In this document: positions 33,843 through 36,313 of the stretch, one piece after another | Layout: each line of letters begins with the position of its first letter | Numbering within the stretch: the first letter of the stretch is position 1 | NCBI GenBank assembly: GCA_017610405.1 | Contig: JAFCCD010000007.1 | Coordinates: forward strand, 1-38,910 | From: Nanobdellota archaeon | Lineage (GTDB): Archaea; Nanobdellota; Nanobdellia; Pacearchaeales; GW2011-AR1 | Direction of reading: 5' to 3' | DNA: 38,910 bases | The notes under the pieces: generated by a model | What the model was told of the DNA's origin: nothing | Database searches by the model: none | What the model saw: only the letters and a program-made list of their open reading frames with translations | Translations under genes and position numbers: made by a program

Positions 33843-36313
33843 TAAAAATCTCGTAATGTCATTTGCTTATTTCCTTTTATAATTTCTTTTATTTCTATGC
33901 CAAATATGTTGAATATGGCTTCAACTGCAGGAAGAATCTGTCTTTCTAAGTAATATTCAATATTATATTCTCCTTTTTCCTCAGAAAGTTTTATTTTATC
34001 ACGAACTAATTTTTTCTTTTCTTTGGTTTCTGCAACATAATATTTAATTAGTTTTCCATCACCTATAGGAATTCCTTTTTCTTTCATCTTTCTCGCAGCT
34101 ACAACATGTGGTGAAATTGCTTTGTATTCTGAAAGTGGTTTTTTAAGCATAGTTCTTATTATTAATTCATCTTTGTTGATTTTTCTCTGTTTTATTTTTA
34201 TTATTATATCTTTTACATATTCCAATGCTTTTTTTTCATTTCCTTCTTTAAGAATAAGATTTATTATTTTATTTTGAACTTCTCTTGCTAAAGAACACCA
34301 ATCTCTTCTAACTGTTTCAAATCCGCGAATCTTTAATTTTCCTTTTTCACTTATCAAGGCGTATTTTTTCTTTGCACCAATTGTTCCTGTTCTTTTTGTT
34401 ACCCATAATCCCCTTTTGTAAAAATCCTCTAATTCTAGTTCCATTATTCCTGGGAGTTCTGAATTTAATTTTTTAAGGAATTCTTTAGCCTGAACTTTTG
34501 TTTTATTCCCTAGGCAAAAACAAATACTGTCTGTATCTGCGTAGATAACATTATATCCTGCTGATTTTGTTTTTTTAATTATTTCCTTGTTTAACTCTCT
34601 TACAAATGCTAGAATTGAATGAGAACTTTCTACTGAAAAATATCTTGCACCAAAAAAAGCTATATAACCGTGAACTGATGCAGATAAAAGTTTGAAAGCA
34701 TTACTTCTTGCCTTGGTAATTGGATTTGGATTTTTTTTGTATTCTTTTTTAAATTTCCTTCTTTCTTCAAATATCTCATTTGCAATAGTTGCTATAAATC
34801 CTTGTTTTTTAGAGAAATAAAATTTTGTTTTTTTCCCATTGAATTCTATTTCAGGAGATTCATAAGAATTTTTTTGTTTCTTTTTTAAAAGAGTTGCTTT
34901 AGATATGTTGAATGAAACTATAATGCTAGTATGCATAGAAGTAAAATCAAATATTACAATATCTTTGTATAAACCAGGTATAGGTTCATAAACAAATGCT
35001 CCTTCTGAAGGAGTTCTTGTTCTTCTTTTAGAGATTTCTTCATGCAGGGGACGTTTTTCAGGAATTTCATTGAATTTTTCTAGTCTGTGTAAAATATATG
35101 ATTCTACTTGTTTTGAAAGACCATATCTAGAAACATCAAATATTGGTTCTTGAATGGTTCTAGTGAATTCTAGAAGATCAGGCCAAAATTTTCCAAATAA
35201 TCTAAATGTTAAATCTGAATCATGTAGATTATAATCAAAATATTTTTCCCATTGATGTTCTTTTATTTTTGAAGAGTGTTTAAATTTAAAATCTTTTTTT
35301 GAATCTTCAAGAAATTCTTTTGAAACTTCATTTAATGAGAGGGTTTCAGATTGCATATATTGGGAATAAGCTGTTTGAATAAATCTTAATAGATCAATAT
35401 GGGTTATTCCTGAGATTTTACTAGTTTTCATCCTTCCTCTTGAAAATTTTGGTTGGCTTTCATCTAATCCCAAAGTTAGAGGAATTTTGAATTTGTCCGC
35501 TCTTGCCCTAAGATAAGGTAAATCAAATCCATCTGAAAAATAACCAACAAGAAAATCAGGAGATATTTTTTTTACATATTCTACAAATTTTTCTAAAAGC
35601 TCTTTTTCATTTTCTACAAATTCAACATAACTTGGTTTAGAAGTTGTTTTTTTCCATGTTAAAACTTTTTTTAAATTATCTGAAACCAAGGAAATCATGA
35701 GTATTTCCCCTTCTCCTATCTTAAATTCATCACATTCTATATCATATGCTAAAACTTTTGGAGAGAAATCTTTTTTTTCTATTTCCTTGAATTCTTTAAG
35801 TTTCAAACATAAATCAACATCTAACCCTGAATCAATTCCCCCAAATTCCTGAGAATTATTTAACATCTCTCCTTCAACATCATACCAATTCAAAGGAATT
35901 AATTTTTTTTCAATAATATAATGAGTTATAAATCCCAAATCATAACCTCTTCTTTTTTCTATTTCAGGAAAGCCCATCTTATCTGCGATATCATGTAAAT
36001 CTTTATAATTTGTAGCAAAAACTTTCAAGGCCCTTACTTTTTTGTTTAGAAAGTTTTTGTTTTGTAATTCAATTTTTTCAACTTTAGTCTGTCTTCCTTT
36101 TATATCTAATTTTATTTTAGAAATTTTTTTAATTAATCCATTAATCTTTTTTTCACTTAAACCTTCTTTTAAAATAGCCCATAAAAAAACAGGACACGAA
36201 TCTATTATACAAACTCTTTTTCCTTTACTATTTCTTCCAATTATTTTAGTATAGTTTTTCCCTTCAAAATCAAAATAATCATAATCTATTGGTATAAAAT
36301 CTGTTTTTATCAT
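33842..36313 (-). CDS. polB: family B DNA polymerase with 3'-5' exonuclease, divergent dNTP-binding motifs
   Basis: YDIE, FDLPYL, YNLHD, DFTSMHTSII, KLLSASVHGY, YADTDS, KKKYAL, RGFETVRRDW, PIP QMTLRDF. Confidence 0.95.
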   Translation of the reverse strand: MIKTDFIPIDYDYFDFEGKNYTKIIGRNSKGKRVCIIDSCPVFLWAILKEGLSEKKINGLIKKISKIKLDIKGRQTKVEKIELQNKNFLNKKVRALKVFATNYKDLHDIADKMGFPEIEKRRGYDLGFITHYIIEKKLIPLNWYDVEGEMLNNSQEFGGIDSGLDVDLCLKLKEFKEIEKKDFSPKVLAYDIECDEFKIGEGEILMISLVSDNLKKVLTWKKTTSKPSYVEFVENEKELLEKFVEYVKKISPDFLVGYFSDGFDLPYLRARADKFKIPLTLGLDESQPKFSRGRMKTSKISGITHIDLLRFIQTAYSQYMQSETLSLNEVSKEFLEDSKKDFKFKHSSKIKEHQWEKYFDYNLHDSDLTFRLFGKFWPDLLEFTRTIQEPIFDVSRYGLSKQVESYILHRLEKFNEIPEKRPLHEEISKRRTRTPSEGAFVYEPIPGLYKDIVIFDFTSMHTSIIVSFNISKATLLKKKQKNSYESPEIEFNGKKTKFYFSKKQGFIATIANEIFEERRKFKKEYKKNPNPITKARSNAFKLLSASVHGYIAFFGARYFSVESSHSILAFVRELNKEIIKKTKSAGYNVIYADTDSICFCLGNKTKVQAKEFLKKLNSELPGIMELELEDFYKRGLWVTKRTGTIGAKKKYALISEKGKLKIRGFETVRRDWCSLAREVQNKIINLILKEGNEKKALEYVKDIIIKIKQRKINKDELIIRTMLKKPLSEYKAISPHVVAARKMKEKGIPIGDGKLIKYYVAETKEKKKLVRDKIKLSEEKGEYNIEYYLERQILPAVEAIFNIFGIEIKEIIKGNKQMTLRDF

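Follow-up and report, generated by a model that had tools for sequence, protein, structure and literature searches.

A histidine-type nucleotide pocket in the family-B DNA polymerase of a Nanobdellota archaeon, on an active-site block with an apparently separate history

Introduction

The steric-gate tyrosine and the motif-B asparagine and tyrosine are textbook near-invariants of family-B DNA polymerases and prime targets of engineering. Here we describe the family-B polymerase (PolB) of a Nanobdellota archaeon of the order Pacearchaeales, in which all three residues are replaced. Its gene, polB, lies in the window analysed here, the whole of a 38,910-nucleotide stretch (contig JAFCCD010000007.1 of assembly GCA_017610405.1, positions 1–38,910, forward strand).

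The closest described systems are the Thermococcales polymerases and their evolved derivatives. In KOD polymerase's ternary complex, the dNTP sugar packs on Y409 with C2' nearest the ring, while N491, bonded to the beta-phosphate and able to bond the 3'-OH, joins S492 in stacking on the nascent base pair (PMC5718519). The structural roles of Y409, N491 and Y494 used below are drawn from that paper and from PMC7763228. In evolved enzymes, specificity for sugar or template is altered by changes at these and nearby positions, namely in RT-TR (P410T, S411R), Kod-RS/RSGA (N491S), RTX (T514I, I521L) and TGK (Y409G), and I521 is placed close to the catalytic D542 (PMC9738464, PMC9533422). Histidine gates are described in other folds. 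In PolD of Thermococcus sp. 9 degN, His931 of subunit DP2 is the gate that blocks the 2'-OH, with a proposed bond to the 3'-OH; the wild-type enzyme blocks rNTPs about 2,300-fold, and a His gate has been proposed for family C (Pol III) as well (PMC7708050). In human PrimPol, Y100H makes NTP incorporation about as efficient as that of dNTPs (PMC6362072). As analogies these precedents point both ways, PrimPol Y100H opening the pocket and PolD His931 gating it.

A literature search, which did not extend to supplementary alignments, found no report of the His-type variant described below. The only match joining 'steric gate' and 'DPANN' concerned a primase, and for family-B Tyr-to-His gate mutants (Y409H, Y410H, Y412H, Y416H, Y254H, Y645H) there was no DNA polymerase steric gate among the matches listed.

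Results

The gate tyrosine and two motif-B residues are replaced in a polymerase that keeps its catalytic residues

The gene and the parts of its product considered here are (aa, amino acid position in the product):

33842–36313, minus strand: polB, family-B DNA polymerase of 823 aa (open reading frame (ORF) and Pfam)
35729–35749, minus strand: Exo I region AYDIECD, aa 189–195, with D191 and E193 (alignment)
34919–34948, minus strand: motif A DFTSMHTSII, aa 456–465, with the catalytic D456 and with M460, H461 and T462 (translation and HMMER alignment)
34931–34933, minus strand: codon of His461, CAT (translation)
34664–34708, minus strand: motif B RSNAFKLLSASVHGY, aa 536–550, with K541 (KOD K487), S544, A545 (N491), S546 (S492) and H548 (Y494) (alignment)
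34589–34618, minus strand: palm helix SILAFVRELN, aa 566–575, with L568 (KOD T514), V571 (G517) and N575 (I521), all diagnostic of the His type (alignment)
34526–34543, minus strand: motif C YADTDS, aa 591–596, with D593 and D595; the D593/T594 junction is the intein site of relatives (alignment)
33845–33868, minus strand: C-terminal motif KQMTLRDF, resembling a PCNA-interacting peptide (PIP), with Q817, L820 and F823 (189-row alignment)

HMMER alignment with Pfu polymerase (2jgu_A) pairs H461, T462, A545, S546 and H548 with Y410, P411, N492, S493 and Y495, and L568, V571 and N575 with T515, G518 and I522. We take KOD numbering to be shifted by one from that of Pfu, which gives KOD Y409, P410, N491, S492, Y494, T514, G517 and I521. 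Motif A, canonically SLYPS with the steric-gate tyrosine, reads SMHTS, and His461 lies opposite Pfu Y410. Motif B, canonically KxxxNSxYG, reads KLLSASVHG, with Ala545 in place of the asparagine and His548 (codon CAC, 34670–34672) in place of the tyrosine. The further positions tied to the His state are L399, S544, S546, S566, L568, V571 and N575. A reading of this DNA from its letters alone (the sequence-only reading) had picked out His461, K541, A545, H548 and YADTDS, and the translation and Pfu alignment confirm each of them. Two amendments to that reading follow: serine in place of glutamine at 537 is common to the PolBs of all 29 relatives aligned and so not specific to the variant, and the methionine before the gate occurs in several Tyr-type relatives too.

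Family-B membership of the product rests on profile matches above the curated cut-offs, PF00136 (7e-49, 167 bits against a cut-off of 23) and PF03104 (4e-29, 102 bits), and on a family-B fold. Its best solved relatives are the Thermococcales Pfu, KOD, 9 degN and Tgo chains (E ~1e-109). An AlphaFold (AF2) model, built from a 60-sequence alignment, reached a predicted local distance difference test score (pLDDT) of 90 and a predicted template modelling (TM) score of 0.84, with pLDDT 92–96 over aa 450–600; in this model the helix that carries L568, V571 and N575 spans aa 561–584. The top Foldseek matches of the model were Pfu, KOD and Tgo chains (TM ~0.8). The product did not reach the NCBIfam equivalogs for DNA polymerase II and I (PRK05762, PRK05761), the top model being NF004421 with 249.7 bits against a cut-off of 570. 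On these scores PolB is a divergent member of its family and the equivalog of no named NCBIfam model. Its near relatives are labelled Candidatus Pacearchaeota in their source names. There is a single PF00136 match in the source genome (388 kb, 21 contigs, 72% complete), and PolB is accordingly the only family-B polymerase found there.

Conservation was assessed in a 189-row alignment, which includes the 150 representatives at 50% identity without 11 that are shorter than 600 aa, and every sixth protein of P0002–P0120 (20 rows). The metal-binding aspartates are almost invariant (D456 in 189 of 189 rows, D593 in 188, D595 in 187), as are the finger and triphosphate residues R518 (188), K522 (183) and K541 (187). 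The family-B catalytic carboxylates (DxxS in motif A, DTD in motif C) and the finger Lys and Arg are thus all present, as is a KKxY motif (aa 648–651). The proofreading residues are likewise in place, comprising Exo I DxE, Exo II D and Exo III YxxxD (D191 in 180 rows, E193 in 178, D264 in 184, Y361 in 184, D365 in 182). The C-terminal Q817xxL820xxF823 is kept too (Q in 168 rows, L in 169, F, W or Y in 175). The earlier statement that the catalytic aspartates, exonuclease acidic residues and PIP box are intact therefore holds. The signature of PolB2-like inactivation, loss of the catalytic Asp motifs, is absent; both motifs are intact, and the ratio of nonsynonymous to synonymous substitution rates (dN/dS) is ~0.1.

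Two further sites were inspected. Exo II reads YFSDGFD, with Phe259 (35537–35539), where Pfu has Asn (YNGDSFD); over the 189 rows the residue is Asn 98 times, Phe 67 times and Tyr 14 times. Engineered KOD variants listed by reviews include N210D (PMC9738464, PMC9533422). The 'second steric gate' (Tgo E664) proved uninformative: it aligns with Thr721, but Thr is the majority residue (106 of 137 non-Pacearchaeal rows).

The His-type residues are coupled, widespread and under purifying selection

All of the 120 nearest protein clusters (68–100% identical over aa 380–620) read SMHT[ST] together with SA[SA]xHGY. A degenerate DNA pattern for motif A, DFxSMHTS(I/M), was present in 84 of the 401 species genomes of the order, in 16 of 86 high-quality genomes and in 49 of 153 genera, and was limited to two families, with 73 of 355 genomes in one and 10 of 24 in the other; reversed, as a control, the pattern matched none of the 401 genomes. 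An apparent deletion of aa 386–516 in the polB of G001 is really a 100-N scaffold gap in a His-type gene.

Comparison with the closest relative, L003, gave dN/dS values of 0.078/0.752 for the gene and 0.078/0.826 for aa 421–600, that is, ~0.1 in this block and its flanks alike. Across 12 His-type genes the diagnostic residues are kept while their codons turn over synonymously (residues 461, 462, 545, 548, 568, 571 and 575): His461 is CAT in seven and CAC in five, His548 is split six and six, Thr462 uses four codons, Ala545 three, Leu568 five and Val571 four. The substitutions are thus neither private to this genome nor under relaxed dN/dS, the outcome that the sequence-only reading had named as fatal to it.

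Eleven alignment columns (399, 461, 462, 544, 545, 546, 548, 566, 568, 571 and 575) separate 31 His rows from 21 Tyr/Trp rows almost perfectly. Of 124 canonical representatives, 106 have Thr at column 568 and 17 have Ala; the column is Leu wherever residue 548 is not Tyr (the His clade, P0127, P0124 and P0211); independent pairs agree in the direction of this coupling in eight of eight cases.

A second source of the same combination was found in a distant clade. P0127, a distant protein (41% identical) among the 150 representatives, reads SLHPS and AAGFHGY. It and its five nearest clusters, P0271–P0275 (61–70% identical to P0127), show [SG]LHPS, AAGFHGY and ILAYAR in six of six, ILAYAR having Leu for Thr at column 568 and Ala for Gly at 571. 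Beyond this clade, the next neighbours (54% identical or less) are Tyr/Asn/Tyr, and a 120-protein set around P0127 comprises six His/Ala/His proteins, 108 canonical, four Trp-type, one Phe and one Tyr/Asn/Trp. By this comparison the His/Ala/His set, with the equivalent of Thr514 changed to Leu, arose a second time in an unrelated clade.

These results bear on whether the variant is a product of decay, in which PolB, dispensable beside PolD, would be drifting into an inactive or structural protein like the inactivated PolB2. PolD is reported to be the sole essential polymerase in two euryarchaea (PMC4065339), PolD is found in 39 of 41 relatives, and three canonical pocket residues have been lost here, all as decay would have it. 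Yet the metal aspartates, triphosphate Arg and Lys, KKxY, exonuclease carboxylates and PIP motif are all kept, selection is equally strong in block and flanks, the variant residues themselves are conserved through codon turnover, and the model is confident over the active site. We regard decay as scarcely credible, and an inactive PolB as very unlikely; in all likelihood the enzyme is active and proofreads.

Other pocket states among relatives

A second non-canonical gate, S[FY]WPS with a normal motif B, occurs in the polB genes L009, L011, L012, L014, L021, L024 and L031 and in the proteins P0123, P0150, P0303–P0305 and P0355, and also among Woesearchaeota-named neighbours. On the flank tree described below this Trp type requires at least five changes, and Phe or Tyr always precedes the Trp (five of five independent pairs). 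L036, the Trp-type polB of G002 (C1:130500–133400), has a frame change near aa 136–142, either a frameshift or an assembly error, and one in-frame TGA.

In a third state, found in the same genus, Ser/Asn-Tyr-Gly stands for Leu-Tyr-Pro, and small residues flank the gate on both sides (L008, L013, L015, L017, L018, L026, L033 and P0122). We take this state to recall engineered L408/P410 variants.

The active-site block and its flanks have conflicting histories

In a tree of the 189 rows made without the motif columns, His types appeared in at least four places within the Pacearchaeal clade, as did Trp types. We then compared the following block with the rest of the gene:

34514–35053, minus strand: active-site block, aa 421–600, with palm, fingers and motifs A–C (trees, approximately unbiased (AU) tests and site likelihoods)

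Trees were made from 52 rows, 47 Pacearchaeal and five outgroup; five of the 20 sampled His-clade rows (P0002, P0044, P0074, P0086 and P0092) are absent from them. The block tree (aa 440–600 minus 15 motif and diagnostic columns) placed all 26 His rows in one group, with a Shimodaira–Hasegawa-like approximate likelihood-ratio (SH-aLRT) support of 82, and 79.7 in a second analysis; it also grouped all eight Trp rows (89) and all seven Ser/Asn-Tyr-Gly rows (85). In the flank tree (aa 1–430 plus 610–823) the pocket types were interleaved, and forcing the His rows together cost 524 log-likelihood (lnL) units (AU p 2e-42). The flanks instead track taxonomy; for example, the His-type L023 joins the Tyr-type L020 and L022, all of family f4. 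Conversely, the block without its diagnostic columns rejected three flank groupings of His with non-His rows (AU p 0.02, 0.026 and 1.4e-6).

Site likelihoods located the conflict. All nine 20-residue bins within aa 421–600 favoured the tree by type, by a sum of +1040 lnL, while 32 of 33 bins outside favoured the flank tree, and the change is sharp at both borders, near aa 421 and aa 600. No fewer than 35 sites contribute 9 lnL units or more apiece to the type tree, and many of the type-supporting sites within the block are conservative (I/V, S/T, K/R). Quartets with His types have almost no sites in favour of the flank topology at aa 441–600 (e.g. 1, 0, 0 and 0 per 40-aa bin, against 4–7 elsewhere). 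The loop after motif A has 40 residues with an 'ESP' insert in 21 of the 26 His rows, across different flank lineages, and the flank neighbours are without it. Sliding pairwise identity gave no sharp breakpoints, aa 461–500 being variable in all pairs.

Whole-block exchange of the other two pocket types was considered and is unsupported. The block rejected neither flank grouping that mixes Trp and Ser-Tyr-Gly rows (AU p 0.16 and 0.53), and in these rows the type is followed only in patches near motif A and aa 561–580.

Could the patchy His type reflect repeated parallel evolution, with the block signal produced by many columns that are coupled by function? A distant clade did acquire the full His/Ala/His/Leu set on its own, the support for the His group is only about 80, and the block's tolerance of the Trp and Ser-Tyr-Gly flank groupings suggests that those switches may have been local and repeated. 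Convergence has more difficulty with the near absence of flank-topology sites in the His quartets, with the conservative nature of many supporting sites and the number of strongly contributing ones, and with a loop insert and loop sequence common to His types and not to their flank neighbours. The one clear case of convergence, moreover, looks different: the P0127 clade has SLHPS and AAGFHGY, in contrast to the uniform SMHTS and SASxHGY within the order. We consider convergence rather improbable. Taken together, the trees, AU tests, site-likelihood map, quartets and common loop inserts favour transfer of a palm–fingers module by homologous recombination. The checks proposed in the sequence-only reading, on spread among relatives and on purifying selection, thus speak for it, except that the variant is no simple clade and behaves as a transferable gene block.

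Inteins of relatives lie within the block

Inserts of at least 350 aa occur exactly after D593 (the YxD/TDS junction) in 14 of the 189 rows and after residue 544 in two, both sites being within the block. Hosts of the motif-C intein span pocket types: His-type L030 (G012), Ser-Tyr-Gly L033 (G017), canonical L034 (G031) and Tyr/Ser/His P0124. These inteins (~400 aa) are 57–62% identical between hosts, against only 41–43% for the upstream flanking polymerase, which suggests transfer of the motif-C intein from one family of the order to another. The invasion of inteins proceeds by gene conversion, in which flanking residues can be converted too (PMC10643990), and from their co-location with the block inteins may drive exchange of the cassette.

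Genome context of polB

PolD subunits were not found in the source genome at its 72% completeness. Of 41 relatives, 39 encode the DP2 subunit, as do 12 of the 13 genomes with a His-type PolB; the gap is therefore most simply put down to incompleteness, and PolB is probably not the main replicase. The source genome also encodes the large subunit of ribonucleotide reductase (RNR) and RNase HII. The proposal in the sequence-only reading that the variant suits a nucleotide-scavenging symbiont is weakened by these two genes and by the prevalence of PolD. The Tyr, Trp and His types among close relatives showed no visible difference in gene content.

The neighbouring genes in the window are:

36879–37919, plus strand: flap endonuclease FEN1/XPG, adjoining polB and divergent from it (PF00867 4e-20, PF00752 9e-17)
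32301–33179, minus strand: M24 methionine-aminopeptidase-like protein
29822–32095, plus strand: 757-aa ORF with two GPPGTGKT P-loops, taken from its sequence for a CDC48/VCP-like AAA+ ATPase
38169–38576, plus strand: PIN-domain protein

In Thermococcus, PolB is reported to act together with Fen1 and ligase when Okazaki fragments mature (PMC4432273). The stretch from polB to the FEN1 gene holds a 120-aa ORF (36463–36825, plus strand) with no Pfam match, whose C-terminal Cys/His cluster, HLHNCP...CKCIH, resembles a small zinc-binding motif. At the end of the window (38594–38910) two 100-aa ORFs overlap on opposite strands; their translations abound in Pro, Arg and Gly, which sets them apart from the remainder of the ~28% G+C window, and an Rfam scan of this end gave no match.

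Discussion

The reading that we favour, with moderate confidence, is that PolB is an active, proofreading, PCNA-binding polymerase that acts beside PolD and carries a co-adapted, exchangeable His-type pocket with shifted sugar recognition. It would probably serve in gap filling, Okazaki-fragment maturation or repair. The tyrosine, asparagine and tyrosine that line the incoming nucleotide in KOD and Tgo (409, 491 and 494) are replaced by His, Ala and His, with P410T, T514L, G517V and I521N as supporting changes. Since the set is kept under purifying selection and a second lineage reached it independently, it would represent one co-adapted solution. His461 would take over the platform role of the tyrosine together with the 3'-OH contact lost with the asparagine, and the pocket would then read the sugar face, at its 2' and 3' positions, differently. 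The module of aa 421–600 would have passed between lineages of the order by homologous recombination, probably aided by intein homing. The outcome we prefer is that ribo- or 3'-modified nucleotides would be excluded less strictly than by Tyr-type relatives, and not that function is lost.

The earlier proposal is thus supported in part. Altered sugar selectivity itself is plausible and inferred, and the His-gate precedents are split. By analogy with these precedents, relaxed or altered discrimination seems quite possible, at somewhat short of an even call, and normal discrimination through a His gate only a little less so.

The latter would fit a pocket of different build and the same function, in which a compensated His/Ala/His/Leu arrangement, with His461 as a true gate, keeps selectivity and fidelity normal and has spread by drift and recombination. 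PolD His931 and the gate proposed for family C (PMC7708050) provide models for it; an intact exonuclease domain, purifying selection over the whole gene and coexistence with RNR suit an ordinary accurate polymerase, and close relatives mix Tyr, Trp and His types without a visible difference in gene content. A multi-residue solution that arose twice and is strict in all 120 clusters, on the other hand, exceeds what drift would lead one to expect. Without Asn491, its contacts to the beta-phosphate and 3'-OH disappear (PMC5718519), four of these positions change specificity in engineered enzymes (PMC9738464, PMC9533422), and Tyr-to-His at the PrimPol gate equalises NTP and dNTP efficiency (PMC6362072). 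We think an unchanged function unlikely, while giving it real weight, and retain a co-adapted pocket with shifted sugar recognition as the preferred reading.

A number of points count against that preference. P0222 and P0255 have a gate His without the motif-B changes, so the coupling is strong and not obligatory. For all His-type enzymes the direction and size of any change in selectivity are a guess by analogy, and selectivity could be normal, since His makes a competent gate in PolD. RNR is no guide to pocket type, with 9 of 13 His-type genomes and 15 of 19 typed others having it in a tally of incomplete genomes. As to exchange, the block tree gives the His group moderate support, the groups tested were named after the trees had been seen, and no recent exchange with sharp DNA borders was found; the exchanges look old, and dS is saturated for most pairs. 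The polB of the source genome carries no intein, and the link between inteins and exchange is one of co-location only. Finally, at 72% completeness the PolD gap is not proof of absence, and if PolD were truly absent PolB would be the replicase.

A bolder view, which we put forward as speculation and think improbable as a whole, is that PolB of Pacearchaeales and related DPANN exists as discrete active-site 'alleles' kept by selection on sugar reading and shuffled by intein-assisted gene conversion. The set, defined at the Leu-Tyr-Pro triad and its partners, would comprise the canonical Tyr, Ser-Tyr-Gly, Phe/Tyr-Trp-Pro, and Met-His-Thr with Ala/His/Leu, the last tolerating ribo- or sugar-modified nucleotides. 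If so, a tolerant His type could aid gap filling in dNTP-short symbionts, or could resist chain-terminating nucleotide analogues from hosts, competitors or viruses.

That an alternative pocket exists which is selectively kept, has arisen twice and retains its proofreading residues shows that replicative-type polymerases have more design room than had been supposed, and His-type PolBs may be ready-made scaffolds for incorporation of sugar-modified nucleotides. If the cassette does move with inteins as its vehicle, a selfish element would here be spreading a functional form of the active site of its own host, which is rare, and the selective pressure on nucleotide choice in DPANN symbionts would become directly testable. 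The new elements here are the block-exchange pattern, the extra coupled positions with their overlap with hot spots of engineering, the Trp and Ser-Tyr-Gly states as alternatives, and the context of PolD, RNR and RNase HII.

Set beside the Thermococcales B3-type enzymes (Pfu, KOD, Tgo and 9 degN), PolB has the same domain order and likewise possesses the catalytic Asp, finger Arg and Lys, exonuclease motifs, KKxY and C-terminal PIP motif, at an identity of only ~30%; it differs in the pocket, where KOD Y409, P410, N491, Y494, T514, G517 and I521 become H, T, A, H, L, V and N. Relative to PolD, whose His931 has the same dual role proposed here for His461 once Asn491 is lost, the likeness is analogy and not homology, the PolD fold (a two-barrel core) being unrelated. 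PrimPol Y100H shares Tyr-to-His at the sugar selector, but it is a single somatic mutation in an archaeo-eukaryotic primase fold, whereas the His type is a conserved set that appears co-adapted. As for intein homing with co-conversion, the likeness lies in the two intein sites of relatives inside the exchanged block; what would set it apart is a supposed tract of ~0.5 kb that brings a functional variant of the active site with it. A parallel is also found in KOD and Tgo variants evolved in the laboratory for reverse transcription or XNA, in which the same pocket positions are changed, P410T is identical and T514 becomes aliphatic in both. Those variants shrink or remove the gate (Y409G/N/A), none in the sources cited above being listed with His at 409 or 494, and, unlike them, the natural set evolved with proofreading intact.

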